A stretch of DNA of 64,000 nucleotides. Source: a virus. Its lineage: Duplodnaviria > Heunggongvirae > Uroviricota > Caudoviricetes. The position numbers and the translations under genes were made by a program. Below the pieces are notes generated by a model, which saw only the letters and a program-made list of their open reading frames with translations, ran no database searches and was not told the DNA's origin. This document shows, in pieces, positions 4,467 through 64,000 of the stretch (position 1 is its first letter; every line of letters begins with the position of its first letter). The stretch lies in IMG/VR virus record IMGVR_UViG_2609459826_000002. One strand, written 5' to 3'.

Positions 4467-4620
4467 CGGTGTTCACCTTTTTATTCACGCGCCGGATATC
4501 ACCCGCTGCTTCACGGCGCAGCCAGTAGTTGTTCTCGTCAACATTTCGCCCTTCGGCGGGCAAAAGGTCGCCGCGGGCAGGGTCAGGCACTGACCGCCCT
4601 TTAACAGGTTTGACAAACAT
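4450..4620 (-). CDS. small phage protein, unknown function
   Basis: 56-codon ORF (MFVKPVKGRSVPDPARGDLLPAEGRNVDENNYWLRREAAGDIRRVNKKVNTDDDKL) with ATG, overlapping sheath start; below the 60-aa cutoff of the ORF track. Confidence 0.35.
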   Translation of the reverse strand: MFVKPVKGRSVPDPARGDLLPAEGRNVDENNYWLRREAAGDIRRVNKKVNTDDDKL

Positions 4621-8556: not shown

Positions 8557-9739
8557 CGGAGGGTTTCGTGGTCATGTTCATCGGTGTGAGATAGACATCA
8601 CCACCGGGACGCGGATTCATATCTTCCAGGTCGCGGCAGTCATTGGGAGAGTAAATTCCCCAATTGATCCCGGTAGCGTAGGCTTCAAAACGGGACTTCA
8701 TATCCCCGCGCAGTAAGGCCCCGGCGTTAAATTTGGCGTAATAAACGCCCTGCTTACTTTTTCGTACCAGTCCGGTGTTGATCCGCTGCTCAATGCGGGT
8801 CAGATACGGCACCAGTGAATAGTTGATAAATCCCAGCCCCAGCTCTTCGATATTGTTGAAGGTGGCGCGATCGGTGTTCTGCACCATGTGCAACGGCACC
8901 CGGAACAGACGACAGATTTCTTCAAGCTGAAACTTGCGGGTTTCCAGGAACTGGCTGTCCTCGGCGTTCAGCGCCATCGACTTCCAGTCCAGCCCCATCT
9001 CAAGGATCATCGGGCGGTGAGCATTGCCAAGCCCGGTGTGACGCTCCTCAAAATCTTTCTTCAGGCGCTCATAAGCCTGATCTGACAGCGTCTGCTCTGT
9101 ACGCAACACACCCGACGTCACCGCGCCATTGCTGAACAGTCTGGCCCCGTGCTCTTCGGTCGCAGCTGCCAGCGATATTGCCTCGCGGGCATAGGCGATG
9201 GGATTCAGCCCCACCAGACCGTCCAGCGTCAGCGTGCGCACATGCCAGATATCTTCCTGGCTCAGTACATCCGTAGAGCCGTCCGGGAATGTGACCTGAT
9301 AGACCGGCTCCCAGCTACTGTTAAGCTTCGGTACCACACAGCCGGGATCGACGGGCAGCAGTTCAGCCACTTCGCCAAATGCTTTCACTTTGTAGGCGTA
9401 AAAGTTTCCCCGCAGGCACAGACAGGTGACCACCAGCTCCCAGAACTCCTGCGGCGTCATATAGCCATTGGGATGCGTGGAGATCAGCTTATGCAGACGC
9501 TCGCCGGTGGCTCTCTGTTTCAGGCTGCCGTTCAGGTGATACAGATTGCAGGGCAACATCCCGACCGACTCTGCCAGCACCCTGACGCAGGAAAAAACCG
9601 CCGTCAGTCGCATGGCCCGCTGGCTGCTGATCTGCTTTCCGGTATAGGTGTCGTAGGACAACCCGATAGCATCCGCCAGCTCTGCTGGCGTGGTCACCGG
9701 TGCGTCACTTTTTCGTTGAAATAATCCCGAAAAGAACAC
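8498..9739 (-). CDS. phage portal protein
   Basis: 413 aa, between terminase large subunit and protease; ORF starts with GTG at 9739 (true start may be internal). Confidence 0.85.
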   Translation of the reverse strand: MFFSGLFQRKSDAPVTTPAELADAIGLSYDTYTGKQISSQRAMRLTAVFSCVRVLAESVGMLPCNLYHLNGSLKQRATGERLHKLISTHPNGYMTPQEFWELVVTCLCLRGNFYAYKVKAFGEVAELLPVDPGCVVPKLNSSWEPVYQVTFPDGSTDVLSQEDIWHVRTLTLDGLVGLNPIAYAREAISLAAATEEHGARLFSNGAVTSGVLRTEQTLSDQAYERLKKDFEERHTGLGNAHRPMILEMGLDWKSMALNAEDSQFLETRKFQLEEICRLFRVPLHMVQNTDRATFNNIEELGLGFINYSLVPYLTRIEQRINTGLVRKSKQGVYYAKFNAGALLRGDMKSRFEAYATGINWGIYSPNDCRDLEDMNPRPGGDVYLTPMNMTTKPSDGSKAGKQKDNANADETTS

Positions 9740-9921
9740 TATTTACCTCCGCCGACAGACGACTGTGTACGGTCGAGATATCGCGCCACCAGCCACGACC
9801 AGAACAGGCACAACGCCCCGGCAACAACAAACCCCGCCGGGGGATAAATCAGCCAGGCACCATACGCCAGCAAAAGCGCCCCCAGCACGCCCACCAGAGG
9901 CGCGAGAATCAGCATGATCAT
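9739..9921 (-). CDS. small membrane protein, unknown function
   Basis: 60 aa, two hydrophobic helices ([22 protein letters not shown] / [16 protein letters not shown]); ATG with GAGG RBS. Confidence 0.4.
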
Positions 9922-9932
9922 AATTACCTCAG

Positions 9933-11666
9933 TTAAAGCGAGCGGATCCCATAGGACTCAATGTGGTCAGACAACGTGTCTTCTTTCTCGTACAGCATGG
10001 CTCTGCCAACCGCCATAATCAGCGCAACTGCACCATCGATTTTGTTTTCCGCCTGCTCTTTGACGGGCTTCACCACATCATCGTTACCCGGAATGGTTTT
10101 GCCGACCACGTTGCCGATACACCAGGTCATGATGGGATTGCCATCATGATGAAAGCGCCCCGATTCAATTGCCGCTTCCAGCTCTTTCATCGGGTCGGAC
10201 ATGTTGGTGTAGTTCTGAATGATAGTGACGGGATTCAGGTCTTCATCAGCAAGGTCATGTGACAACCCGGTCGCCCCGAAGGGGTCGATGGGTGACTCAC
10301 TGACCGGGCTGATTTTGTTCGCCGCTTTGGCCTCCTCGAGGATGTAGCGATAATCCACCTCCGCACCATCGGTAACGGTCAGAACGCCCATTTCCACCCA
10401 TTTCTGAAAGCGTTCGGCTGTCCGGCGATCTTCATTTTTCTCGACGCTGTACACCGTGTCATACGGTACCCAGAAGCGCGGAGCCACACTGTAGTAATGC
10501 GTTTTACCGTCAATCTCGCGGGTATAAAGTCGCGCCATGCTGTTCATATCCAGCTTACGCGCCAGGTCAAAGGCCAGAATGCACGGTTGCCCCTCGAACT
10601 GTTCAAGGGTCAGTGATTTATCCTCGCAGCTCTGCCAGCTCACTAGGTTGAAATACGCCGAACGCGCCGACACCCAGATATTGAGGTGTTTTGTTTTAAA
10701 GACGTTTGCCAGACGGGCGTTATTTTTCGCACGCTGCTGCTGACTTAACAAAAATTCGCGATAAACCGACACGCCAATATTCGGGTTAGCTTTTTCCAGC
10801 ACCTGCGGGTCGGTCCAGTCATCGCCTTCGTCAACGGTATAGATGATCCCGAACAGTTCATCGTTGGGTACCGAACCGTTGAGCATCTCGATAACTTCCC
10901 GCCGCTTGTCGTAGCACGGCCCCTCAATGTTGTACCCGGCGGTGGTGATGGCCCACATCAGTGGCTGACGTCGCGCGCCCATCCCGGTAAGCATCGTGGT
11001 ATAAAGCGCATCGGTGGCGTGCTCGTGATATTCATCCACCACGGCACAGTGGGGTGATGAACCATCACCGGGGTTACCGATCAGCGGTTCAAACCGCGCG
11101 CCATCCTCCGGACGGTTCATGTTTGAGGCGTTAACCTCAATCCCGAACGCTTCCGTCAGCATGGGTGTGCGTTTACACATCAGTCGCGCCGGGCGAAAGA
11201 CTTCCCACGCCTGTTTCTCTGTCGTGGCACCGGAATACACTTCCGCGCCAAACTCGTTATCACAGGCAAAACAATACAGGGCAACACCGGCAGAGATTGC
11301 CGATTTGCCGTTCTTACGGGGGATTTCGGTATACCCCTCCCTGAAGCGGCGCAGCCGGGAGCCTTTATTGACCCAGCCAAACGCACAGCAGATCACAAAG
11401 AGCTGCCACGGTTCCAGCGTGATGGGCATCCTCTTGAATGCCCACTCCCCCTTGGTGTGTGGCAACAGCTGAATAAATTTCGCGGCCCGTTCAGCCAGGT
11501 CCTTGTCGAAGCGGTAACGAAACGACTTACTTTTTTCCGCCATCAGGTCATCAAGATGGCGCTGGCAGGCCTGAATCACAAACTGGCAGGCCACAATCTT
11601 TCCGCGCACGACATCACGGGCATACTGATTGGCAGCATTTACGTTGGGGTAAGATTTCCGGCTCAT
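9933..11666 (-). CDS. phage terminase large subunit
   Basis: 577 aa with ATPase (GKS) and nuclease regions; canonical position upstream of portal. Confidence 0.9.
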
Positions 11667-29311: not shown

Positions 29312-29360
29312 TGGTGCCGATAATAGGAGTCGAACCTACGACCTTCGCATTACGAATGCG
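29312..29360 (-). other. attachment-site core: 49-nt copy of the 3' end of tRNA-Thr(CGU) (thrW-type), not a complete tRNA gene
   Basis: Minus strand reads CGCATTCGTAATGCGAAGGTCGTAGGTTCGACTCCTATTATCGGCACCA (anticodon loop with CGT, T-arm, acceptor 3' strand, CCA); sequence upstream of it does not continue the tRNA. Confidence 0.75.
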
Positions 29361-29542
29361 ACGTTATTATATTTTTACCCCTTTAAAAACCTACTCTTAA
29401 AACAAGTAATTCATTATAAAACATTGTGTTATGAAAAACACCTGTTGATAAAAATTGACAGGTGTTGATGTTTATTCCCCCATTTTACTTACACCAGCAG
29501 TTACATTATGGTGATGTAACATTTCTCATCTGGAGCCCCAAA

Positions 29543-42040: not shown

Positions 42041-42102
42041 TCGAGATGGTAATGGTGCCAACTTACTGATTTAGTGTATGATGGTGTTTTTGAGGTGCTC
42101 CA

Positions 42103-42378
42103 GTGGCTTCTGTTTCTATCAGCTGTCCCTCCTGCTCAGCTACTGACGGGGTGGTGCGTAACGGTAAAAGTACTGCCGGACATCAGCGCTATCTCTGCTC
42201 TCACTGCCGTAAAACATGGCAGCTACAGTTCACTTACACCGCTTCTCAACCCGGTACGCATCAGAAAATCATTGATATGGCCATGAATGGCGTTGGATGC
42301 CGGGCAACCGCCCGCATTATGGGCGTTGGCCTCAACACGATTTTACGTCACTTAAAAAACTCAGGCCGCAGTCGGTAA
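42103..42378 (+). CDS. insA: IS1 InsA
   Basis: 91 aa [23 protein letters not shown]... zinc-finger/HTH. Confidence 0.85.
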
Positions 42379-42800
42379 CCTCGCGCATACAGCCGGGCAG
42401 CGATGTGATTGTCTGCGCTGAAATGGACGAACAGTGGGGCTACGTCGGTGCTAAATCACGTCAGCGCTGGCTGTTTTACGCGTATGACAGGATACGGAGG
42501 ACGGTTGTGGCGCACGTCTTCGGTGAACGCACTCTGGCCACACTGGAGCGTCTTCTGAGCCTGCTGTCGGCCTTTGAGGTCGTGGTATGGATGACGGATG
42601 GCTGGCCGCTGTATGAATCCCGCCTGAAGGGAAAGCTGCACGTAATCAGCAAGCGATACACGCAGCGCATTGAGCGACATAACCTGAATCTGAGACAACA
42701 TCTGGCAAGGCTGGGACGGAAGTCACTGTCGTTCTCAAAATCGGTGGAGCTGCATGACAAAGTCATCGGGCATTATCTGAACATAAAACACTATCAGTAA
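42297..42800 (+). CDS. insB: IS1 InsB (expressed as InsAB' by frameshift)
   Basis: ORF in -1 frame overlapping insA 3' end. Confidence 0.8.
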
Positions 42801-42967
42801 GTTGGAGTCATTACCCGTCCTCCGGTATTGAAAGTTAATACACAAATCAGGATGATGGAGGCTCATACTGGTACAGCGCGACCACTTATGCAGGCGTCTC
42901 TGTCAGGTTTGTTGCCCGGATCACCCGCATCAGGGACAGGGCTGTTCAGTTATCCGCAGGAGAAAAT

Positions 42968-49549: not shown

Positions 49550-50509
<960 letters not shown>

Positions 50510-50745
50510 ACACTAACGCTCCCGGTGTACCGGGAGCGTTGCCGGTCATTGTCCCGTAAATGAAAGCGTTGTTCATCAATAGGAATTTAAACCCCAAAAA
50601 GATTAAAAAAACACCTGAAAAAGGGCACTTTCTCAGCATCGTCACACATGCCATAACTTCGACGTCATCAATTAAATGGACTTCATTGATTGATACCGGG
50701 TATCGTGACGGGAGCCTGTTTAGGATTCTGTGTAAATGCCTTTTC

Positions 50746-51538
50746 TCAGAAGTGACCGTCCAGGCGGTCACCGAACTCGATAATAAAGCGGCTCATTGCC
50801 ATTCGCCAGTCCTTCAACGGCATCGTCCATTTCGGGGACGCAGACTGGATTGCCAGCCACACCACTTTATTCACCGAGTCGTCTGTCGGGAACACTTTAC
50901 GCTTTTTGATCGCATGGCGGATCACGCTGTTTAGCGACTCGATGGCATTCGTCGTATAGATCACTTTGCGGATGTCCGTTGGATAAGCGAAGAACGTGGC
51001 AAGATTCGGCCAGTTAGCCTGCCAGCTTCGGCTTATCTGAGGATAGCGACTGTCCCAGGCCGCAGCGAACGCTTCCAGTGCCTGCTGACCTGCCTCTTCC
51101 GTGGGAGCTTGATAAATCGCTTTCAGGTCGCGAGTGACGGCCTTGTAGTCCTTCCATGACACGAAGCGCAGGCTGTTGCGCACCATATGCACGATGCATA
51201 ACTGGATGCGGGCCTTCGGATATACTGTGTTGATGGCATCCGGGAAGCCTTTCAGGCCATCCACACAGGCGATGAGGATATCGTTCAGACCGCGGTTTTT
51301 CAGTTCAGTCAGCACATTGAGCCAGAACTTCGCCCCTTCATTTTCGGCCAGCCACATACCCAGCAGTTCCTTCTGACCTTCGATATTGATGCCCAGTGCC
51401 AGGAACACCGATTTGTTGATGACGCGACTGTCCTGCCGAACTTTCAGGACGATACAGTCAAGATAAACAATGGGGTAAACAGCATCCAGTGGTCTGTTTT
51501 GCCATTCTACAACCTGCTCCATCACGGCATCGGTGACC
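50746..51538 (-). pseudogene. IS256-family transposase, N-terminally truncated by IS3-family insertion
   Basis: C-terminal ~260 aa of mutator-type transposase; reading frame runs into the IS end at 51539. Confidence 0.7.
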
Positions 51539-51592
51539 TGAACCGCCCCGGGAATCCTGGAGACTAAACTCCCTGAGAAAGAGGTAAACAGG

Positions 51593-51919
51593 ATGACTAA
51601 AAATACACGTTTTTCCCCCGAGGTCCGTCAACGGGCAGTTCGTATGGTTCTGGAAAGTCAGGGCGAATATGACTCACAATGGGCGGCAATTTGTTCCATT
51701 GCCCCAAAGATTGGCTGTACACCAGAGACTCTGCGTGTGTGGGTTCGTCAGCATGAGCGGGATACCGGGAGTGGTGATGGTGGACTCACCACCGCTGAAC
51801 GTCAGCGTCTGAAAGAGCTGGAACGTGAAAATCGTGAACTGCGCCGCAGTAACGATATCCTTCGCCAGGCTTCCGCTTATTTTGCGAAGGCGGAGTTCGA
51901 CCGCCTCTGGAAAAAATAA
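51593..51919 (+). CDS. IS3-family transposase OrfA (IS629-like)
   Basis: 108 aa HTH/leucine-zipper OrfA; A6 frameshift window at orfA/orfB junction. Confidence 0.8.
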
Positions 51920-52333
51920 TGCCGCTGCTGGATAAGCTGCGTGAGCAGTACGGGGTCGGACCGGTATGCAGTGAACTGCATATTGCCCCGTCAACGTATT
52001 ACCACTGTCAGCAACAGCGACATCATCCTGATAAACGCAGTGCCCGTGCTCAGCGCGATGACTGGCTGAAGAGAGAGATACAGCGCGTATACGATGAAAA
52101 TCATCAGGTGTACGGTGTGCGTAAAGTCTGGCGCCAGTTGTTACGCGAAGGTATCAGGGTGGCCAGATGTACAGTGGCGCGCCTCATGGCGGTTATGGGA
52201 CTTGCCGGTGTTCTCCGGGGTAAAAAGGTCCGTACTACCGTCAGCCGGAAAGCCGTTTCCGCAGGCGACCGCGTAAACCGTCAGTTCGTGGCAGAACGTC
52301 CTGACCAGCTGTGGGTGGCTGATTTTACTTACG
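51919..52333 (+). pseudogene. IS3-family transposase OrfB, 5' segment (interrupted)
   Basis: Homology to OrfB up to ...QLWVADFTY then intron 5' end GTGTG. Confidence 0.6.
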
Positions 52334-54603
52334 GTGTGCCCGGAGTTCAGGGCGGGCATGGATGCTTAAATGAACCGCGAGTCTGTCTGGAATATTGAAC
52401 CGGTAACTCACGATGAGAAACCCAACAATCCCACCGGGTGTGACGGTGGAGAACCTGAGCGGCAGTGACCTGCGGCATGCCCGCAGGGTGATGTAACCCG
52501 CTGACAACGGGGATTGAGGCGAGATCACTAAGCCGAGATGATCCTCAAGGTTAAGTACTGAAAGGCTGAAGAACATGAACCCGTTAATCCGCCTCTGTGG
52601 GTTGAAAACGTCACCACGGCCTACGTGATCTGACAGGCCGTGCAGGAGGAACTGGCAGTGATACGTAAGCACTGCCGGTCGAAGGTGTTTTGACATGTAT
52701 GCGAAACACCGGGGCAGCAGCGTCTATCACGCTTGCGTTGCTGACTTCTGCCAACTTGCGGCAAGCAAGGATAAAGAGTGCGACGGGCAGCCTCCTCAGT
52801 ATGCCTGAGTCCAGGCAGGTAAACCGGGGAAGGTCAGCGACGGATGTTAAGGGGGCATGGCTCCGATGACGCGCTGGCTGGCGGAGCTTCCGTAGTAGTC
52901 CGCGATGGGGAAAGTCCATTACATGGCGAAGGGAAGCAGTTTGAATGTGTTTGCGACGTGAATTAACTGACCTAACGAGGTGAAGACCTTTGATAATCAG
53001 CGAAATGCAACGCAAGCTTGCCACATGGGCAGTCACCGATCCGTCCCTACGGATTCAACGGCTGCTGCGTCTGATAACACAACCAGAATGGCTGGCTGAA
53101 GCGGCGCGGATCACGCTTTCATCAAAGGGGGCCCATACCCCCGGCGTTGATGGCGTGAACAAAACAATGCTACAGGCCAGACTGGCTGTTGAGCTGCAAA
53201 TCCTCAGGGATGAATTACTCTCAGGCCACTACCAGCCCTTGCCCGCCAGACGGGTTTACATCCCTAAAAGCAACGGCAAACTGCGACCACTGGGTATCCC
53301 CGCGTTGCGGGATCGTATTGTTCAGCGGGCCATGCTGATGGCGATGGAGCCGATATGGGAGAGTGATTTTCATACGCTCTCATATGGCTTCCGGCCTGAG
53401 CGCAGTGTCCACCACGCTATCCGCACGGTGAAATTACAGCTCACAGACTGTGGTGAAACCCGGGGACGCTGGGTGATTGAAGGCGACCTGTCCAGTTACT
53501 TCGACACCGTACATCATCGACTGCTGATGAAGGCTGTACGCCGCAGGATCAGTGACGCACGTTTCATGACTCTGCTGTGGAAAACCATCAAGGCGGGACA
53601 TATCGATGTCGGTCTCTTTCGGGCGGCCAGTGAAGGTGTGCCACAGGGCGGTGTTATATCGCCGCTATTATCGAACATCATGCTGAATGAGTTCGATCAA
53701 TACCTGCATGAGCGCTACCTGAGCGGGAAAGCCAGAAAAGATCGGTGGTACTGGAATAACAGTATCCAACGGGGCCGAAGTACGGCGGTCAGAGAAAACT
53801 GGCAGTGGAAACCCGCGGTGGCGTACTGCCGCTATGCCGATGATTTTGTCCTCATCGTCAAAGGCACCAAAGCACAGGCGGAAGCCATCAGGGAGGAGTG
53901 TCGGGGTGTGCTCGAAGGCAGTCTGAAACTCAGGCTGAACATGGATAAGACTAAAATCACCCATGTTAATGACGGCTTTATCTTTCTGGGGCACAGGATC
54001 ATTCGCAAACGCAGTCGTTATGGCGAGATGCGAGTGGTCTCAACGATCCCGCAGGAGAAAGCCAGAAACTTCGCCGCATCGCTGACAGCACTGTTATCAG
54101 GCAACTACAGTGAAAGCAAAGTCGATATGGCTGAACAACTCAACCGAAAACTGAAAGGCTGGGCCATGTTCTATCAGTTCGTTGATTTTAAGGCCAAAGT
54201 CTTCAGTTATATCGACCGTGTCGTGTTCTGGAAGCTGGCTCACTGGCTGGCCCGCAAATACCGTACAGGTATCGCTTCCCTGATGAGGTGGTGGTGTAAA
54301 TCACCGAAACCGGGTCAGAGCAAAACGTGGGTTTTATTTGGTAAAACCAATCACGGCAAGCTCAGCGGCGAAATACTGTACCGGTTGGTGGGGCAAGGCA
54401 AGAAGCTGTTCCGCTGGCGGCTACCCGAAGGTAATCCCTATCTGAGGACGGAGACCAGAAACACGTATACATCGCGCTTTACAGAAGTGGCAATGGCGTT
54501 CGCCAGCATTTAAATGGAGAGCCGGATGCGCTGAAAGGTGCACGTCCGGTTCGGGGAGGAGAGGCAGGGAAATAGTCCGACTACGCCCTGCCTCTTACTC
54601 TAC
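52334..54603 (+). mobile_element. bacterial group II intron (about 2.27 kb)
   Basis: 5' GTGTG; domain V GAGCCGGATGCGCTGAAAGGTGCACGTCCGGTTC at 54519-54552; ends ...CTAC; encodes RT/maturase; flanking exon frame is restored across the junction. Confidence 0.8.
52990..54513 (+). CDS. group II intron-encoded reverse transcriptase/maturase
   Basis: 507 aa; RT motifs incl. YADD (AYCRYADDFVLIV); maturase X region; no HNH endonuclease domain evident. Confidence 0.9.
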   Translation: MIISEMQRKLATWAVTDPSLRIQRLLRLITQPEWLAEAARITLSSKGAHTPGVDGVNKTMLQARLAVELQILRDELLSGHYQPLPARRVYIPKSNGKLRPLGIPALRDRIVQRAMLMAMEPIWESDFHTLSYGFRPERSVHHAIRTVKLQLTDCGETRGRWVIEGDLSSYFDTVHHRLLMKAVRRRISDARFMTLLWKTIKAGHIDVGLFRAASEGVPQGGVISPLLSNIMLNEFDQYLHERYLSGKARKDRWYWNNSIQRGRSTAVRENWQWKPAVAYCRYADDFVLIVKGTKAQAEAIREECRGVLEGSLKLRLNMDKTKITHVNDGFIFLGHRIIRKRSRYGEMRVVSTIPQEKARNFAASLTALLSGNYSESKVDMAEQLNRKLKGWAMFYQFVDFKAKVFSYIDRVVFWKLAHWLARKYRTGIASLMRWWCKSPKPGQSKTWVLFGKTNHGKLSGEILYRLVGQGKKLFRWRLPEGNPYLRTETRNTYTSRFTEVAMAFASI

Positions 54604-54835
54604 TCTGGACAGGCAAGCGTTGGGCTTACCTTGCTGTTGTTCTCGATCTGTTCGCAAGGAAACCTGAGGGTTGGGCAATGTCATTCTCACCGGACAGCAA
54701 GCTGACATCAAAGCGCTGGAAATTGCGTGGGAAGCTTGCGGTAAACCCGCCGGAGTGATGTTCCACAGTGACAGTAATAATGCCGGTGTCAGTCTTTACC
54801 ACCACTCAGTTTGCCGTTTAACCCGATTGGTGTGA
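54604..54835 (+). pseudogene. IS3-family transposase OrfB, downstream segment (frameshifted, truncated)
   Basis: WTGKRWAYLAVVLDLFARK...GWAMS then frameshift ...GKPAGVMFHSD; truncated before scrR. Confidence 0.5.
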
Positions 54836-54946
54836 TTACTGATGCAGTGAAGACCTTTCCGCATCACATCACTACAAATATTGATTTTTAATTGTTGGAT
54901 TCGCACCAGATTTCACCTCTGTAGGGTATTCAAAAATGCTCAGTTA

Positions 54947-55951
54947 TTACTGATGCCTAAACTGCAGCGTTGCGGGCAGGTAGCGTTGTAGCGTTTCGGG
55001 CGTATCGCCCTCGATCAATTGGCTTATCAGATCATAGCAGTGCCAGGCCAACTGGCGGTTATCCTGCTGTACGGTATCGATACGCAGCGACAGCGAATCA
55101 TAAAGATAGTGATCGTCAAAGCTCGTCAGATGGATATCTGAGTCGAGTAAATGGTGCTGGCTCATATAGCGCAGTACCCCTTCGAGCAGTCCACAGGCGG
55201 CAGTGAACAGCGCCTTAGGCGGCCGCCCAAGTCGCGCGCAGAGTGCGGCGAACATCTCATAGCCTGAGCTCGGGTGGTAGTTACCGTTAATCACCCATTC
55301 CGGGCGCAGTGCAATACCCGCCTGAGCCAAACCCTGCGTGAAGCCGGTCAGACGATCGCGTGAAGGCGACAGACGCGACTGACCGCCTAAAAACCAGAAC
55401 TCATCGCTATGCTTAGGTGCAATGCGGGAAATCAGTTCCGCCGTTGGGGTAATCGAATCAGTCATCACCAGCGGCAGCAGGCTTTCATTAGGACAACGGT
55501 CAAACAGCACTACTGGCAGTTGTTGGCTGAGCTTAAGATAGTCGGCATCGTTGTGCATACATGAAGCGACGATCAGACCGTCAACCTGGCGGGAAATCAT
55601 GTTATTGACCACCACGCTCTCCTGACCGGGGTTTTCATCAGTACAAGAGATCAATAGCTGGACGCCTGCTTCGCGGCACAGCATTTCCAGCTCATGTGAA
55701 AAGACCGCAAAGCCGTGGTTGGTGATCTCCGGCACCACCAGTCCGATGGTGTGGCTGCGGTTGTCGCGCAGCGAGCGGGCGTGAATGCTTGGCTGATAGT
55801 GCTGCTCACGGGCAATCGCCAGTACTCGCTCACGCGTTTCCTGCGCCACACGCAGCTCCTTACCACGACCGTTCAGTACTAGGCTGGCGGTCGCTTTTGA
55901 GACGCCAGCCTGTTCGGCGATATCTTTAATGGTTACGCGTTTAGTTTTCAT
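54947..55951 (-). CDS. scrR: sucrose operon repressor ScrR (LacI family)
   Basis: ATG 55951; [31 protein letters not shown]. Confidence 0.85.
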
Positions 55952-55980
55952 TACGACGCCATGAGCTTGAGGCAAAACGC

Positions 55981-57381
55981 TTATTCTACCATGCAAGTTC
56001 GCAGCGGCCAGTAGCAGAATGCGTCCGGTGTGATGCCAGAGAACATTAGCTGCCCTGAACAGGCCGGGAAGTAGCGGCAGCTCATCACTCCTTCGCCGCC
56101 GTTGATGAAAATCTCCACGCTAGACTGGTCGATGAAAATATGCAGCGAGCGGACGTCTCCGCGCCAGTAACGATAATGCTTCTCGTCGCTGGCCAGACTG
56201 GGTCGGGCCAGGCGGATCCCGCTGGCATCGCGTTCAAGGATTAATGCGCCGTCAAAATCGAGGCTCAAAATATCGTCCCCAGTGGTTTGTAGAACGATTT
56301 CCATCGGTGCCAGCGGCAGGGAGTTCCCTGCCCAGCCGTGCGCTTCGCCGCGCAGGGCGCTCAGCTCTCGTAGAGGACGTTGGTATAGCTGACCATCGAT
56401 AAACTCCAGCTCACGCAGGCAGGTCATCTGATGGATCCAGCCGTTGGTGAGGGTCGGTTGAAGCATCTCTTCGCCCTCCGGCACGCCCATCCAGCCGACC
56501 AGCAGACGGCGGCCATCACTGGTAAGCATGGTTTGCGGGGCGTAGAACTCAAACCCTGCGTCCAATTCGTGCAGTTCGCCATGCCCGAAGGCCGCGCGGT
56601 GGTAGTCGAAATCGCCGCTCATCCACACTGCCGGGTAGGTGTTGAGATAGCGCTCTTTCTCACGAGGCACGCCCTGCGGGCAGCAAATCAGGACATGCTG
56701 GTCGCCGAGGGCAAACAGGTCCGGGCATTCCCACATATAGCCCGCGTCGTCCAGGCCATTGATGCCATAACCGGCGATTTCGCCCTGACTCGTCCACTCA
56801 TGAAGGTCCGCTGAGCTGAATAACAACACCTTGCCACGCTTTTGCAAATCCTGTGCGCCCAGCACCATGTACCAGCGACCTTCGTGCTGCCAGACTTTCG
56901 GGTCACGCACGTGGCCGGTATAGCCCTCCGGCAGCGGTAATACCGGGCCGAGTTTGGTAAACGTGCCGTCGGCATTTTCCGTCGCCAGGCACTGCCACGC
57001 GGTTCGGCTGCCGTCGTCAAATTTTACGTTGCCGGTATAGCACAGGGTGAGCGTGCCCTGACTATCCACGGCGCTTCCGGAGTAGCAGCCGTTGCGGTCA
57101 TACTCTTCATCCGGCATGAGCGCGATCGGCTCATGTTGCCAGTGCAGCAGGTCGGCAGAGCTCCAGTGCCCCCAGCACTTGAACTTATGATCGCAGGCGA
57201 GCGGGTTCCACTGATAAAACAGGTGATAACGTCCGGCAAATTCAATAAAGCCGTTGGGATCGTTCATCAGCCCGGTCACCGGCGCATGGTGCCAGCGGGG
57301 ATAGTGGCTGTCGGCCAGCGCGCGCGGCTGGCCCTGCATAACAGCCTGCAAAATCGCAGGCAGGCGTGATGGATGTGACAT
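55981..57381 (-). CDS. scrB: sucrose-6-phosphate hydrolase ScrB (GH32)
   Basis: 466 aa; GH32 motifs LMNDPNG, VRDP, WECPD; TAATG overlap with scrA. Confidence 0.85.
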
Positions 57382-58751
57382 TATTCAGCGTCCGTTTTGT
57401 ATTTCAGTACCAGGGAGACGACAAAGGCGACGCCAAAGGCGATAACCATCCCGATAATGTAGTTCAGCAGCGAGCTGGCCTGCACGATAGCCATGCCAGG
57501 GATAGCCGTCAGGCCCACCGCGGTCATGTAAACATGCATGGATACCACCCACGCGCCGCCCACCGCGCCGCCAATCAGGGCTGCGATAAACGGTTTTACA
57601 AAGCGTAAGTTAATACCAAAAATCGCCGCTTCGGTGATGCCGAGCATGGCAGAAAACGCCGAGGGCAGGGTAATGGCTTTGATTTTGGCATCTTTCGTTT
57701 TGAACCACACCGCCAGACAAGCACCGCCCTGAGCGACGTTGGCCATCGCCCAAATCGGCAGCAGGAAGTTGACGCCGATGGATGGGTTGCCCAGCAGTCC
57801 CGCTTCGATGGCGTGGAAGCTGTGGTGAATACCGGTAATGACGATAACCGAATAGAGACCGCCAAACAGCAGTCCGGCCAGCCAACCGGCGTGGGTAATC
57901 AGGGTGCTAAGGACAAACGAAATACCGTCGCCAAGCGCGCGACCAGCCGGGCCGATAATCAGCAGGGCGATAAAACCGGAAATGATCACCGTCAGGAACG
58001 GCGTCAGGATCAGATCCAGTGCATCGGGGATCACGCGACGCAGCTGTTTCTCAACGATGCTCATAAACCACACCGCCAGCAGCACCGGGAACACCGTGCC
58101 CTGATAGCCGATCATGGCAATCTCAAGGCCGAAGAAGTTCATGGTGTGGAAACCGGCGGCCACACCCCAGGCGTTGGTGAGCGCCGGGTGAGTCAGGATG
58201 CCGCCAAGCGTCGCGCCAAGATAAGGATTACCACCGAACTCGCGGGCGGCGGTGAAGCCAATCAGGATCGGCAGAATAATAAACGCCGCTGAGCTGCACA
58301 TATCCAGCATGATGTAGATGGCGTTACCCGGGTCGACCCAGCCGTACGTTTTAACCATCCCCAGAAGGCCCATCAACAGGCCGGAGGCGACGATAGCCGG
58401 GATGATCGGCACAAAGATGTTCGACAACAGGCGGGCAATGCGCTGGAAAGGATTCAGTTTTTTCGCCGCAATGTCGGCAGCTTCCGATTTGCTGGATTCG
58501 CCAATCCCTGCCGCCTGGATAAAGGCGGCGTAGACTTTGTTCACCACCCCGGTGCCGAAGATAATCTGCATCTGTCCGGCGTTACGGAAACAGCCCTTCA
58601 CCCCATCAATTTTGCCGATGGCCTGCTGATCGGCCAGTGAGTCATCGACCAGCACCAGGCGCAGGCGTGTGGCACAGTGCGCGGCGCTGGCGATATTTTC
58701 CTTGCCTCCCAGAAGCGGAAGTAGCGAGCGGGAAATCTGTTCAAAATCCAT
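57381..58751 (-). CDS. scrA: PTS sucrose-specific EIIBC ScrA
   Basis: 456 aa; N-terminal IIB domain with Cys (AAHCATRLRL) then multi-TM IIC domain. Confidence 0.9.
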   Translation of the reverse strand: MDFEQISRSLLPLLGGKENIASAAHCATRLRLVLVDDSLADQQAIGKIDGVKGCFRNAGQMQIIFGTGVVNKVYAAFIQAAGIGESSKSEAADIAAKKLNPFQRIARLLSNIFVPIIPAIVASGLLMGLLGMVKTYGWVDPGNAIYIMLDMCSSAAFIILPILIGFTAAREFGGNPYLGATLGGILTHPALTNAWGVAAGFHTMNFFGLEIAMIGYQGTVFPVLLAVWFMSIVEKQLRRVIPDALDLILTPFLTVIISGFIALLIIGPAGRALGDGISFVLSTLITHAGWLAGLLFGGLYSVIVITGIHHSFHAIEAGLLGNPSIGVNFLLPIWAMANVAQGGACLAVWFKTKDAKIKAITLPSAFSAMLGITEAAIFGINLRFVKPFIAALIGGAVGGAWVVSMHVYMTAVGLTAIPGMAIVQASSLLNYIIGMVIAFGVAFVVSLVLKYKTDAE

Positions 58752-58888
58752 AGTACCCTCTGAATGCGTATTGATTTTCGAGTTGTCGTCCCGTGGTAGC
58801 CGGAGCGCATTCTCTTCGTTGTTATTGTGTCCGGGGCGACGAAACGTATTTTGTCGCCCCGGCGGTTACTGTCGCCAGGTGTTAACCA

Positions 58889-60522
<1,634 letters not shown>

Positions 60523-60571
60523 TAAGTGTGATGGATGCAACAAAGTGGACCGCGTACGACGGTATTTAGGA

Positions 60572-61495
60572 TCAAATCTGGCGGTGTAGATCGCGCTGGT
60601 ATGGCAGGGCAGTCATCGCGCCTTTCGCCAGGGTTGCCAGGGCACCGCAGGTTTGCGCCAGAGCGAGCGTTGGCTCCAGGGCATTGATATCCGCCGGCAT
60701 CCCGTTGGCAGCAAGGCTGGCAAGCAGTCCGGCGACAAACGCATCGCCCGCACCGGTGGTATCCACGCTGACAACCGGTTTAGCGCTGAAATGGATAAAC
60801 TGCTGCTGGAATGCGGCGATGACGCCCGCTTTACCCTGAGTCACCAGCAGTAATTCAGGCTGATAACGCTCAGTGATGCTGGCGATCCCCTGCGCGATAT
60901 CATTACTCCCGCTGATGAGTATCAGCTCTTCTTCGGACAGTTTCACCACGTTCGCCAGACGCAGGGCGCGGTCGAGACAGGCGTGCAACAGGTTCTGATC
61001 TTGCCAGAGATCCAGGCGGATATTAGGGTCAAAGCTCACCCGGCCACCGGCACGTTTGATGTTCTCCATAGCCGCGAAGGTAGCACTGCGGCTGGGCTCG
61101 GCGCTGAGCGCGATGGAGCAGATGTGCAACCACTGTCCGGCGGCAAACTGTGGCAGGTCTTCTTCAGCCAGGAACAGGTCAGCGCTGGGGCGTACCATAA
61201 AGGTAAAGGTGCGTTCACCTTGGTCATCAAGGTCGACCACCACAGTGGACGTGCGGTGATGATCGTCAAGATACATATGGCTGACGTCGACCTGCTCCTG
61301 TTGCAGGGTATGACGCATGTAGCGGCCAAACGGGTCACCGCCGACGCGGCCGATAAATCCGCTGTTGCCGCCAAGGCGGGCAACCCCTACCGCCACGTTA
61401 GCCGGCGCGCCTCCAGGGCACTGTAGCAAGCGCCCTTCACTCTCCGGTAGCAGGTCCACCACTGCGTCGCCCAGAACCCAAACTTTTGCTTTCAT
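60572..61495 (-). CDS. scrK: fructokinase ScrK (PfkB family)
   Basis: ATG 61495 with GGAGGG RBS; PfkB motifs (GGAPANVA, DTTGAGDAF). Confidence 0.85.
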   Translation of the reverse strand: MKAKVWVLGDAVVDLLPESEGRLLQCPGGAPANVAVGVARLGGNSGFIGRVGGDPFGRYMRHTLQQEQVDVSHMYLDDHHRTSTVVVDLDDQGERTFTFMVRPSADLFLAEEDLPQFAAGQWLHICSIALSAEPSRSATFAAMENIKRAGGRVSFDPNIRLDLWQDQNLLHACLDRALRLANVVKLSEEELILISGSNDIAQGIASITERYQPELLLVTQGKAGVIAAFQQQFIHFSAKPVVSVDTTGAGDAFVAGLLASLAANGMPADINALEPTLALAQTCGALATLAKGAMTALPYQRDLHRQI

Positions 61496-61522
61496 GCTAA
61501 AACCCTCCAAGGCTAAACTTAA

Positions 61523-61536
61523 CTAAACCGGTTTAG
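61523..61536. promoter_or_regulatory. scrK operator (same palindrome as at scrY)
   Basis: CTAAACCGGTTTAG 28 nt upstream of scrK start. Confidence 0.5.
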
Positions 61537-61740
61537 CATATTAAATCACAGTGAATGAGTGGGGGAAAGTTCCAGCCGGAAAAGCACTGCTCAGGGCATA
61601 AAAACGTGAGCCGCCTTACGAAATAGAATTGATTCGACAGCTGTGAAGACTTACGTCCTGGACACAAATGGATCCTGGATAAATTACCATGCAACTTGAT
61701 GAAATTATCATGTTTTATCTTATTTACAGATAAATCAAAG

Positions 61741-62082
61741 GGCTTTTAACACCACACTTCTTGGCATAATGGTTAAGTGTAGTAATGCTCGCTCTGGATG
61801 GGTTTGCTTCTATGCTGCGCAGGTATTTGTAAGAAATACCCATTCTACTGGCGAGTTGTTGTCGCATCAGGCCAGCGAAACTGCGCAATTTCATCAGCGT
61901 TTCTGGAGGGTTTCCTTTAAAACTTCATCGACAAAACCGCTTTTTACCGTAGATACAGTAAGTGCCTCTTCTCTGCCATTATCCCAGCATCCAAGGTTAC
62001 CGGGTTCTGATGTAGTCTGCCGATATGCAAGAAATGCAACGGCATCATGCTGGTTATGATGCTGTTTAATCTTCATTGTCAC
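61741..62082 (-). pseudogene. frameshifted HTH (XRE-like) gene
   Basis: 62-aa ORF ends ...LQKR stop; downstream +1 frame continues MKLRSFAGLMRQQLASRMGISYKYLRSIEANPSRASITTLNHYAKKCGVKS (HTH); single-base frameshift would join them. Confidence 0.35.
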
Positions 62083-62403
62083 ATGGACTATTCAGGGAGC
62101 GACAAGCGCTCCCACATGAAAACAGAACCACTCGTTTCATTTACGTGCTTCCTCAAAAGTAATCTCATACCCAATACTTCTGATTTAGTAGGGTTCTGAT
62201 CATATCATGCAGCTCGATTGCGCTCAATTTGACGGTTTTCATCTTTACACAATGCTCGGTTATGATACTTTGTGATAGGCATGACAAGATCTGGCCGTAA
62301 TTTTTTAGAAGTGATTTTCCCCGCCACTTCACGGGACAGCATACATCCGGATAAAACCGGTAACAGGAAAGGCTCCACGCTGCATACGGAGGAAACAGAA
62401 TTA

Positions 62404-62712
62404 ATGAATGATAAATTGCCGCCCTGCGCTGATACCAGGGTGGAACGTGTCCGTCTTAAAGATGGGGATTACTTTTTCCCTGCTGAACCCGCCATAAAAG
62501 CGGATTCTTTGCGGACAAAATCGCTCCTTCATCGTTTTAACCACACCGATCCTGCTCATATTGATTCCCGCCTGCTACTGATGAAAGAGTTGCTGCCTGA
62601 ATGTGGGGAAGGGGTATCTGTCACCACGTCTTTCCACTGCAGCAGGGGGTATAACATTCGTAAGCGTCGTCTCAGCACCGTCTGGCAGATCCTGAAATTC
62701 CTGAGAGGATAG
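62404..62712 (+). pseudogene. truncated hexapeptide-repeat O-acetyltransferase (Maa/LacA-like N-terminal part)
   Basis: SLLHRFNHTDPAHIDSRLLLMKELLPECGEGVSVTTSFHCSRGYNI resembles N-terminus of maltose/galactoside acetyltransferases; frame ends after about 100 aa at a palindromic junction. Confidence 0.5.
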
Positions 62713-62740
62713 TGGACACCAAATATGGTGGACACTATCC

Positions 62741-63262
62741 ATGAAATCATTAACCACAGTGCGTAAAAAAAGCCCTAATTATCCCGTTGAGTTCAAAATC
62801 AAAATGGTTGAACTCTCGCATCGACCAGATATCCGAGTCTTTGCGTTTGCCAGCGAGGATAAGGAGTACCAACCGTTACTCGATGATATTCTGGATGGTC
62901 CAATGGTTGGGCGTTTTGATACTGAGGAAGCCGGAAAGGCTTTGATCGATGGTGGATTGATTGAGCGTTTGATGTCAACTATCATGCCCTTTATCACTTC
63001 AGAGGCCCCTCTACCCGATACGCATCTACGTCGGGAAACAACCTGGTATTATCCACTGGAAGCTATTCGCGAAACTGTTGTAAATGCACTGGCTCATCGT
63101 GACTGGACACGCTTTGTTGAGATAGAGATTGGCTTGTATAGCAATCGATTTGAAGTTATTAGCCCAGGGGCGCTGAATAATTCGATGTCGATTGAAAAGA
63201 TGGTTACAGGTCAGCGATCACCACGCAATACGATTATTATGGAAGTCTTACGTGATTATGGT
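62741..63262 (+). pseudogene. mosaic remnant: IS OrfA-like N-terminus fused to a RecG-like (HATPase_c_4-type) C-terminal fragment
   Basis: KSPNYPVEFKIKMVEL resembles IS transposase OrfA HTH start; remainder (WYYPLEAIRETVVNALAHRDW...RNTIIMEVLRDYG) resembles C-terminus of divergent-AAA/RecG-like regulators; reading frame runs into IS1. Confidence 0.4.
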
Positions 63263-64000
63263 GGTGATGCTGCCAACTTACTGATTTAGTGTATGATGGT
63301 GTTTTTGAGGTGCTCCAGTGGCTTCTGTTTCTATCAGCTGTCCCTCCTGTTCAGCTACTGACGGGGTGGTGCGTAACGGCAAAAGCACCGCCGGACATCA
63401 GCGCTATCTCTGCTCTCACTGCCGTAAAACATGGCAACTGCAGTTCACTTACACCGCTTCTCAACCCGGTACGCACCAGAAAATCATTGATATGGCCATG
63501 AATGGCGTTGGATGCCGGGCAACTGCCCGCATTATGGGCGTTGGCCTCAACACGATTTTCCGCCATTTAAAAAACTCAGGCCGCAGTCGGTAACCTCGCG
63601 CATACAGCCGGGCAGTGACGTCATCGTCTGCGCGGAAATGGACGAACAGTGGGGATACGTCGGGGCTAAATCGCGCCAGCGCTGGCTGTTTTACGCGTAT
63701 GACAGGCTCCGGAAGACGGTTGTTGCGCACGTATTCGGTGAACGCACTATGGCGACGCTGGGGCGTCTTATGAGCCTGCTGTCACCCTTTGACGTGGTGA
63801 TATGGATGACGGATGGCTGTCCGCTGTATGAATCCCGCCTGAAGGGAAAGCTGCACGTAATCAGCAAGCGATATACGCAGCGAATTGAGCGGCATAACCT
63901 GAATCTGAGGCAGCACCTGGCACGGCTGGGACGGAAGTCGCTGTCGTTCTCAAAATCGGTGGAGCTGCATGACAAAGTCATCGGGCATTATCTGAACATA
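63263..64000 (+). mobile_element. IS1 (second copy, same orientation; right end beyond window)
   Basis: Begins GGTGATGCTGCCAACTTACTGATTTAGTG; insA 63318-63593; insB runs to window edge. Confidence 0.9.
63318..63593 (+). CDS. insA: IS1 InsA
   Basis: 91 aa, same as copy 1 with few substitutions. Confidence 0.85.

Follow-up and report, generated by a model that had tools for sequence, protein, structure and literature searches.

Architecture of the locus

The composite element lies within a window of 64,000 nucleotides (the whole stretch of DNA that was analysed). A complete group II intron is flanked there by a part of IS629 as its 5′ exon and by a part of another IS3-family transposase gene as its 3′ exon. 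The features are as follows.

50746-51538, minus strand: remaining 3′ part of the transposase gene of an IS1414 (IS256 family), interrupted by IS629; left context of the composite
51539-52333, plus strand: 5′ 795 bp of IS629, the 5′ exon of the intron, with the left inverted repeat, orfA, the pseudoknot and the start of orfB
51593-51919, plus strand: IS629 orfA
51874-51990, plus strand: IS629 frameshift pseudoknot (Rfam ALIL, RF01497, 120.9 bits)
from 51919, plus strand: first 138 codons of IS629 orfB
52334-54603, plus strand: complete group II intron E.c.I4 of 2270 bp (bacterial class A); identity to the published copies 99.7-99.9%
52521-52527, plus strand: candidate EBS2 (GAGAUCA), tentative, pairing with IS629 positions -14 to -8
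52664-52669, plus strand: EBS1 (CGUAAG), in the loop of the hairpin 52651-52679 (10-bp stem, 9-nt terminal loop)
53005-54513, plus strand: reverse transcriptase/maturase, intact, 502 aa plus stop, without an endonuclease domain (RVT_1, GIIM)
54517-54603, plus strand: ribozyme domains V (54519-54552) and VI (Rfam RF00029), with the bulged branch-point A at 54597
54604-54772, plus strand: orfB fragment (169 bp) of ISx, an unnamed IS911-group element; the 3′ exon, frameshifted and cut at an HSD codon
54773-54865, plus strand: 93 bp from the left end of an IS110-family element, the remnant of an insertion into ISx orfB
54947-55996, minus strand: scrR (LacI-family sucrose repressor), an ORF and the first scr gene, always found after the ISx fragment; context

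The first-pass annotation of this DNA, made from the letters alone, had drawn the region from 51539 to 54835. Its left limit is the true left end of IS629, but its right limit was set too far, as the IS3-family fragment stops at 54772.

Identity and boundaries of the intron

The intron opened with GTGTG (RNA GUGUG, 52334-52338), which provides the conserved 5′ GUGYG end, and finished with ...CTCTAC at 54603 (RNA ...UAC), which provides the conserved 3′ AY end. Both ends were fixed independently, by comparison with intact IS629 and with an empty ISx site. The tail of the upstream exon, ...GATTTTACTTACG at 52333, was the point at which homology to the intact IS629 copy L008 stopped, whereas the first intron-free base, 54604, was the start of the match to an uninterrupted ISx copy in L007. 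Domains V and VI matched Rfam RF00029 over 54517-54603 with 64.9 bits (E = 1.7e-10, gathering score 40). The same segment folded with -48.2 kcal/mol (z = -6.45) and left the A at 54597, which lies 7 nt from the 3′ end, as the only bulged A.

Over 2270 bp, the intron was 99.74% identical to E.c.I4-3a from strain 55989 (L003; NC_011748, 3366025-3368295) and 99.78% identical to E.c.I4-10 from IAI39 (L005; NC_011750, 489783-492052). Both copies were found via the coordinates in Table S3 of PMC3522654, where E.c.I4 is catalogued with a length of 2270-2271 bp. The identification rests on the tables of Leclercq & Cordaux (PMC3522654, the source of the E.c.I4 coordinates and class) and on direct sequence comparison. 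E.c.I4, known from Escherichia and Shigella and named S.f.I1 in Shigella flexneri, shares with our element the length, the insertion point and a reverse transcriptase/maturase that lacks an endonuclease domain, as described for bacterial class A introns (PMC3552965). Our element departs from the compared copies by three bases and by one amino acid of the maturase, which is nothing of substance. It is a complete, apparently functional copy of E.c.I4.

The maturase ORF contained the YADD motif and matched RVT_1 (1.4e-34) and GIIM (1.3e-10), with no further Pfam family at E ≤ 0.001. According to RefSeq annotation, translation starts at ATG 53005, giving 502 aa, and not at TTG 52990. The protein was identical to the maturase of L002 (WP_001189111.1) at 501 of 502 positions, the conservative A10V being the sole change.

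These results agree with the first-pass annotation in the intron boundaries (GTGTG at 52334, CTAC at 54603), the position of domain V and the YADD reverse transcriptase/maturase ORF. What it had called simply a group II intron can now be given the name of a catalogued class A element.

Exon-binding sites

The hairpin presenting EBS1 had a folding energy of -16 kcal/mol (z = -3.3). Counted by hand, EBS1 paired at 6/6 positions with CUUACG, the six bases that end the IS629 exon, and at 4/6 positions with the corresponding bases of IS911, ISx, the SMS-3-5 host and the IAI39 host. The candidate EBS2 formed 7/7 pairs, including two G-U pairs, with UGAUUUU of IS629, and 4-5/7 pairs with the other host ISs (also by hand); its local hairpin was weak (z = -0.74). 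Judged from these pairings, the exon-binding sites of E.c.I4 appear to fit IS629 best, EBS2 remaining a candidate. For IS911-type exons, pairing of AUACGU with ACGUAU in a shifted EBS1 register was considered and rejected, as the splice site would move by one base.

The 5′ exon is a fragment of IS629

Over its 795 bp, the 5′ flank showed 100% identity to intact copies of IS629 type from O145 and O103 strains, including L008. All features of the left part of IS629 were present, namely the left inverted repeat, orfA, the programmed -1 frameshift signal and orfB, and the Pfam domains HTH_Tnp_1 and HTH_21 were recognized. The rve domain of the intact IS629 covers OrfB residues 126-222, whereas the IS629 sequence of the window ends at codon 139. 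The 3′ part and the right inverted repeat of IS629 were absent throughout the window, so IS629 is represented by a fragment and not by the whole element. The intron is inserted in the rve (DDE) domain, 3 residues past the first catalytic D of IS629 OrfB.

IS629 itself interrupts the IS1414 transposase gene, which matched Transposase_mut (1.8e-80) over profile positions 145-377 only. The corresponding IS1414-family pseudogene, annotated in L001 and L002, was 99.7% identical to the part in the window. The IS1414|IS629 junction was found in about 202 of 5426 E. coli genomes.

The arrangement in L001 and L002 represents what we call locus A, present in about 200 E. coli genomes (for example DAX4 and strain 32-4) and composed of the IS1414 fragment, a 5′ part of an IS629 variant, E.c.I4 and a 3′ part of IS911. 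The window and locus A share the IS1414|IS629 junction and an identical upstream sugar-island context, and their introns are 99.7-99.9% identical. In contrast, their exons diverge, by 4.9% in exon 1 and by about 17% in exon 2, and the right neighbours are a lactate permease gene and dld at locus A but scr genes in the window.

The 3′ exon belongs to a different element

The 3′ flank was 57% identical to the homologous segment of IS629, about 82% (82-83%) to IS911 and 99-100% to ISx. It is not IS911 itself but belongs to the related, unnamed ISx. The fragment occurred at 99-100% identity in 27 E. coli genomes, every time next to scrR, and in L007 it joined upstream ISx sequence without an intron. 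The nearest longer relatives of ISx, on plasmids of Klebsiella, Citrobacter and Phytobacter, were 94-96% identical. Joining of the two exons keeps the frame (...DFTY-V-WTGKRWAYLAVVLDLF...), and a 1-nt deletion relative to IS911 then leads to a stop at 54752-54754; the fragment is labelled as frameshifted in the annotations of L006, L007 and L011. The IS110-family remnant that truncates it was 95.6% identical to the left end of a 1374-bp IS110-family element located at the homologous point of IS911 (L001, L010). Further to the right, scrR is annotated in L006, L007, L011, L012 and L016-L024, and positions 54102-63077 of the window were 99.91% identical to L006.

Hence, the reading of the flanks in the first-pass annotation holds. 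It had placed the insertion at the FTY codon of the DDE domain, noted the frame restored by joining the exons (DFTY-V), and taken the upstream segment as IS629-like and the downstream one as a different, frameshifted IS3 lineage not contiguous with it. No single IS matches both flanks over its whole length.

States of the scr-side locus in other genomes

The junction on the scrR side was found in several states among E. coli genomes. In VREC0864 (L007), the ISx target site is empty (GTGACGTATA|TCTGGACAGG). In EcPF16 and PCP06171 (including L011 and L012), E.c.I4 resides between the 5′ and 3′ exons of ISx, which is the parental state. Elsewhere, the ISx 3′ exon is combined with a foreign 5′ exon: from IS911 in ECONIH4 and CAVP776, from an IS911 variant in strain 81, from a fourth IS3-family element in AW1.7, MS6192, Z142-1 and MSB1_9D, and from a 72% relative of IS629 in ET490. 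Across strains, at least four other 5′ exons of the IS3 family are thus attached to the constant ISx 3′ exon.

Sister copies give a direct view of crossovers inside the intron. The intron of L022/L023 is a mosaic, with 68-70 differences in the first ~900 nt and 3 in the remaining ~1360 nt, and in L016/L018 the divergence is confined to the first ~450 nt, which puts the switch points near nt 900 and nt 450, respectively.

The complete genomes ET734, ET776, ET881 and ES10 correspond to the window minus one 4510-bp deletion (49592-54101), with 99.9% identity on both sides. This deletion was present in 4 of the 27 genomes with the ISx-scrR pair, and the rest carry other 5′ exons. A single occurrence of the intron|ISx junction, in Kluyvera georgiana ATCC 51603, lies in an 8-kb locus that begins inside the intron; the private deletion junction of the window was absent from GTDB representative genomes. 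The exact arrangement of the window occurred in 0 of 5426 complete E. coli genomes, the best match reaching 96% coverage and 97.7% identity. A count of 1306 genomes takes in any IS629::E.c.I4 copy and is not specific to this locus.

Probable origin of the chimera

We consider it very probable that the chimera arose by homologous recombination between E.c.I4 copies resident in two different ISs, one of the two origins put forward in the first-pass annotation. The parental ISx::E.c.I4 (L011, L012) and the mosaic sister introns support this origin, and we infer that the junction in the window was produced by the same kind of recombination. E.c.I4 is known to home into IS3-family transposase genes, which it enters by reverse splicing at one conserved spot, one base past the Y codon of D-x-T-Y, the motif with the first catalytic aspartate. 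One copy would have homed in this way into ISx beside scrR. A second copy would have been resident in an IS629 inserted in IS1414, on the downstream side of a raffinose-like sugar island. RecA-type homologous recombination between the two copies, inside their 2.27 kb of near-identical sequence, would then have connected the DNA left of the IS629-borne copy to the DNA right of the ISx-borne copy.

To the left of IS629, the window carries more than 9 kb of the chromosomal context of locus A, with the IS1414|IS629 junction shared with L001 and L002. Since this DNA came along, the exchange took place at the DNA level and was not a cDNA event. RNA-mediated co-conversion of the 5′ exon was rejected for the same reason, as the transferred DNA includes the IS1414 junction, which is not part of a transcribed unit.

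The IS629 part differs from that of locus A in L001/L002 by the 4.9% noted above, with differences spanning 51542 to 52309, in a locus that is otherwise 99.7% identical. The proposed single crossover does not account for the IS629 part, and at least one further exchange or conversion is needed, with its left crossover in the first ~53 bp of the IS. A comparison of the window intron with eight other copies gave 16 variable columns, the window differing at 3, too few to map the crossover within it; one of the three differences was shared with an IS629-borne copy. The window contained no reciprocal product, no second intron and no second IS629 copy.

Three other explanations were weighed against recombination between intron copies. 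An assembly artefact, in which the 2.27-kb repeat was wrongly bridged so that the IS629::E.c.I4 5′ junction and the ISx::E.c.I4 3′ junction come from two places, is improbable. It would explain why the exact arrangement was not met in complete E. coli genomes and why the private deletion junction was missing from GTDB representatives; moreover, the start of the Kluyvera georgiana locus inside the intron may mark a contig end, in which case the repeat is hard to assemble. Nevertheless, the 64-kb window runs unbroken through other repeats (two IS1, IS629, IS1414), which is typical of a finished or long-read assembly, and the four genomes with the 4510-bp deletion indicate that the left and right contexts are truly adjacent in the lineage. 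Analogous chimeras are also present in many complete genomes.

Homing of E.c.I4 into an IS629/ISx hybrid transposase gene, formed beforehand by recombination between the two ISs, is very improbable. The insertion points in IS629 and IS911/ISx are exactly homologous, so that such a hybrid would still be a target, but IS629 and ISx are only 55-58% identical near the site, too low for homologous exchange, and the switch between them falls to the base at both intron ends. In addition, this locus is occupied in other genomes by ISx::E.c.I4 with its two ISx exons, sister loci have crossovers inside the intron, and an empty hybrid site was not seen in any search.

Simple retrohoming into one IS3-family element with subsequent mutational decay of its downstream half, the other origin proposed in the first-pass annotation, would suit a frameshifted and truncated downstream fragment and the homing of E.c.I4 into IS629 (intron|IS629 3′ junction in about 1308 genomes), but it is effectively refuted, because decay cannot yield an exon 1 that is 100% IS629 next to an exon 2 that is 57% identical to IS629 and 99-100% identical to a separate element, the upstream half of which occurs at this chromosomal junction both next to the intron and, in L007, uninterrupted.

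Presumed consequences for the intron and the scr module

Lacking a right end and a complete DDE domain, and with a frameshifted 3′ exon, the hybrid host IS is presumably dead. The IS629 promoter could still drive transcription of the intron, and splicing could follow, since beyond the 5′ exon the ribozyme reads no more than the first base of the 3′ exon, which is U in all hosts. It could also still act as a source of new copies.

A wider and more speculative reading, which we regard as possible but rather doubtful, is that E.c.I4 serves as a portable homology cassette that repeatedly re-attaches the scr sucrose-utilisation module to new contexts. Across strains, one and the same junction (3′ part of the intron, ISx, scrR) carries at least five different 5′ exons of the IS3 family, and the crossover points within the intron vary. 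In the window, the exchange would have fused the raffinose-like island and the scr genes within a 20-kb segment flanked by direct copies of IS1. In the strongest form of this reading, a circular scr-bearing element would integrate through a single crossover with any resident IS::E.c.I4, and the intron would be the attachment site by which the island moves.

Relation to described chimeric hosts

Chimeric IS629/IS911 hosts of E.c.I4 are already in the literature, and the finding in the window is correct but ordinary. Table S2 of PMC3522654 describes the host of E.c.I4-3a, which lies in the SHI-1 island of E. coli 55989, as "a chimeric IS629/IS911", and that of E.c.I4-15 of IAI39 as a chimeric IS629/ISEc31. 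Like the window, E.c.I4-3a (L003) has an IS629-type 5′ exon and an IS911-group 3′ exon around an intact E.c.I4. However, the 3′ exon in the window is ISx (82% to IS911), tied to scr genes, and not IS911 proper, and its 5′ exon is IS629 proper, whereas L003 has a 95% variant; the chromosomal contexts also differ.

Ectopic homologous recombination is known between dispersed IS copies and, in Wolbachia (reference 43 of PMC3522654), between copies of group II introns; near-identical repeats act there as portable homology and lead to fusions, deletions or inversions. Tandems of introns and ISs were named as recombination substrates in the discussion of PMC3522654, which expressly predicted such events for them. 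In comparison with such cases, one locus can be traced here through empty, occupied, recombinant and deleted states with several partners. Comparison with other genomes adds a modest point, the recurrent re-joining around the scr module. The locus offers a clean worked example of how a retroelement nested in other selfish elements supplies 2.3 kb of near-perfect homology and reshuffles genomic islands; in this case, intron homology would have joined two sugar-utilisation clusters and later seeded a deletion. It lends support to the published view of intron/IS tandems as recombination hazards and opens no new question.

In annotation, the region should not be treated as one interrupted transposase gene. 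The labels due are E.c.I4 (ltrA intact), a 5′ fragment of IS629, a 3′ fragment of an IS911-group element and a remnant of an IS110-family element.

The intron and its identity

A group II intron and its reading frame were located in the window as follows:

52334-54603 (+), group II intron, starting with GTGTG and ending with CTCTAC
53005 (ATG) to 54513 (stop), intron-internal ORF of 502 aa with RVT_1 and GIIM domains

The region 54517-54603 matched the Rfam group II intron model with 64.9 bits (gathering score 40). Its fold (z = -6.45) comprises domain V (54519-54552) followed by domain VI, in which only one A, at 54597, bulges out. The ORF contained the YADD motif; the domain search returned nothing beyond RVT_1 and GIIM, hence no endonuclease domain. 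Over all 2270 bases, the intron was 99.74% identical to E.c.I4-3a of strain 55989 and 99.78% identical to E.c.I4-10 of IAI39, and its maturase shared 501 of 502 residues with a copy from the E. coli locus A (L002, annotated WP_001189111.1). By these matches we identify the intron as E.c.I4, a class A intron of 2270-2271 bp (Leclercq & Cordaux 2012, PMC3522654). Class A proteins are missing the endonuclease domain (PMC3552965), as is the protein encoded here.

Two different IS3-family flanks

51539-52333, IS3-family 5′ segment (exon 1): left end, intact orfA, ALIL frameshift pseudoknot and 138 orfB codons
54604-54772, IS3-type 3′ fragment (exon 2): reads WTGKRWAYLAVVLDLFARKPEGWAMSFSPDSKLT, then out of frame
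54773-54865, left end of an IS110-family element, right of exon 2

Exon 1, with its ALIL pseudoknot scoring 120.9 bits, agreed in all 795 bp (100%) with IS629-type elements that lie intact and uninterrupted in many O145 and O103 genomes. These read ...GATTTTACTTACG directly followed by TCAGCACATGG across the target site. Exon 1 is IS629. The identity of exon 2 was 57% with the corresponding stretch of IS629 and ~82% with IS911, values that assign it to neither. In 27 complete E. coli genomes there is a fragment of 99-100% identity to exon 2, directly adjacent to the scr sucrose genes in all of them. The closest longer copies (94-96%) resided on Klebsiella, Citrobacter, Phytobacter and Raoultella plasmids. 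We assign exon 2 to a separate, unnamed IS911-group element, referred to as ISx; the two flanks therefore derive from two distinct IS3-family elements. Compared separately, they matched no single IS end to end.

The ligated exons stay in frame; projected onto the OrfB of an intact IS629, their junction lies within the rve domain (residues 126-222), directly after ADFTY. The first-pass annotation had described the intron ends, domain V, the YADD ORF and the in-frame exons, all of which agree with the sequence, Rfam and Pfam-type domain results, as well as an IS629-like upstream segment facing a different, frameshifted IS3 lineage. Only its right limit, 54835, has to be corrected, to 54772.

The complete IS110-family element measures 1374 bp (L001 from locus A, 9375-10748; L010, about 3180-4545). 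In orfB of the IS911 group it splits the HSDQGS codons between D and Q, at the second catalytic aspartate; the E.c.I4 target lies at the first. This point was occupied in IS911 (L001, L010) and, by a 93-bp remnant, in the ISx of the window, which suggests that one IS targets another in a sequence-specific way.

Exon recognition and expected activity

52664-52669, EBS1 (CGUAAG), part of the 9-nt loop that caps a stable hairpin (z = -3.3)
52521-52527, candidate EBS2 (GAGAUCA), pairing 7/7 with IS629 positions -14 to -8

EBS1 paired with all of the final six IS629-exon bases, compared with 4/6 in the IS911, ISx, SMS-3-5 and IAI39 exons, and the candidate EBS2 target in IS629 was centred on a GAU aspartate codon. 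Since pairing was best with IS629, this element appears to be the cognate site, the other hosts looking like tolerated near-cognate ones. The first base of the 3′ exon was U in every host. The intron should splice from the hybrid context because the IS629 promoter region, the ribozyme elements and the maturase are all intact, and it may act as a source of new copies. The hybrid host has no right inverted repeat and, judged from its sequence, is dead; from its predicted ligated message, OrfA would be translated along with a shortened OrfAB′ that keeps the first catalytic aspartate only.

Origin of the hybrid host

Other genomes retain earlier states, with ISx empty or occupied, at the scrR-side junction that the window also has. 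In VREC0864, ISx was unbroken across the target site (...GATGTGACGTATA running into TCTGGACAGGCAAG...), and the match to the window started exactly at 54604, the first base past the intron. EcPF16 and PCP06171 carried the full E.c.I4 in this site; since ISx sequence lay on both sides, E.c.I4 evidently homed into ISx. Left of the window intron, IS629 was inserted in a fragment of IS1414; before it come a remnant of a carbohydrate porin, crr and a raffinose-like cluster. The same context, including the exact IS1414-IS629 junction, characterizes locus A, found in ~202 E. coli genomes with an IS629-variant 5′ part, E.c.I4 and an IS911 3′ part.

The window is thus made up of locus A on its left and the scr locus on its right, and the changeover would lie somewhere inside the 2.27-kb intron. 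Since >9 kb of ordinary DNA was carried along on the left, the exchange took place by DNA recombination rather than through a cDNA. On the scr side it may have been a deletion, an inversion or the integration of a circle; the reciprocal product was not found within the window. Between the two origins offered by the first-pass annotation, retrohoming followed by decay or recombination between intron copies in two ISs, the empty and occupied ISx states and the mosaic introns of sister genomes back the latter.

ET734, ET776, ET881 and ES10 lacked 4510 bp of the window (49592-54101) through a single deletion and otherwise corresponded to it, with 99.9% identity on both sides. Because these four genomes match on both sides, the two sugar clusters are indeed fused in the ET734-type lineage, of which the window looks like the undeleted form. 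The sole rival worth retaining, mis-assembly across the intron repeat, is unlikely, as the window runs unbroken through other repeats and the ET734-type derivatives speak against it.

Recombination between locus A and the scr locus does not account for the IS629 part (51539-52333), which differed by 4.9% from that of locus A (L001/L002, 6140-6934). The differences were spread from 51542, the fourth IS base, to 52309, whereas the neighbouring IS1414 fragment (99.7%) and intron (99.7-99.9%) were nearly identical, which implies that the IS part alone was replaced or converted. This would need one more event, an exchange or a conversion, involving an IS629::E.c.I4 copy and having its left crossover within the first ~53 bp of the IS. 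The intron SNP 53033 T, common to the window and an IS629-borne copy (L013), hints weakly at such an exchange.

Repeated exchange at the scr module

The constant right part (intron 3′ part, ISx fragment, IS110 remnant, scrR) had many different left partners.

Left partners of the constant right part in sister genomes
IS911 proper (99%): ECONIH4, CAVP776
IS911 variant (92%): strain 81
Fourth IS3-family element: AW1.7, MS6192, Z142-1, MSB1_9D
IS629 relative (72%): ET490
Intron cut by IS1: H6

Introns joined to the fourth element had a diverged 5′ part, then changed abruptly to the canonical sequence. Z142-1 and MSB1_9D showed 68-70 differences in the first ~900 nt and 3 in the remainder; in AW1.7 and MS6192, divergence was limited to the first ~450 nt. 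Such switches indicate crossovers within the intron at two different points. These four introns beside scrR (L016, L018, L022 and L023) were mosaic E.c.I4 copies, in which a diverged 5′ part, with as many as 35 differences in a single 227-nt bin, adjoined a canonical 3′ part. The diverged variant accompanied the 5′ exon of the fourth element, an unnamed IS3-family member with the tail ...CACTGATATTACTTATA. In Kluyvera georgiana ATCC 51603 (NZ_LXEU01000074.1), the intron 3′ part, ISx fragment and scr genes were present at 99.9% identity; the module, intron stub included, therefore occurs in more than one genus.

Residence of E.c.I4 in IS3-family transposase genes has been published and the intron itself catalogued; chimeric IS629/IS911 and IS629/ISEc31 hosts are on record (Table S2), and intron/IS tandems were discussed as recombination substrates (PMC3522654). 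The window adds one more case, which differs in its 3′ partner: the chimera is a correct finding, not new in kind, and the comparative series shows clearly how exchange has recurred around one scr module.

Other features of the window

The region 17101-42100 resembled E. coli genomic-island DNA only at ~92% identity and <=67% coverage, and none of 5426 complete E. coli genomes has a close counterpart of it; the matches carried type I restriction-modification, integrase and UvrD-like helicase genes, and Zorya genes in one case. A tRNA-like fragment at 29323-29379 (-) (Rfam tRNA, 29.7 bits, model positions 9-63), where ARAGORN called no tRNA gene, may be a duplicated attachment-site remnant of a genomic island.

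Two IS1 copies (42048-42817 and 63263-64000), in direct orientation and 93.8% identical to each other, flank ~20 kb comprising the raffinose-like cluster, the intron and the scr segment, an arrangement resembling a composite transposon. Left of the first IS1, the window was not collinear with the ET734 chromosome. A 9-bp overlap at 49605-49613 marks a 2.15-kb deletion relative to L001/L002. Two DUF2913 genes and a kinase are lost in it, as is the 5′ portion of the carbohydrate porin, which makes ORF 49601-50509 a porin remnant.
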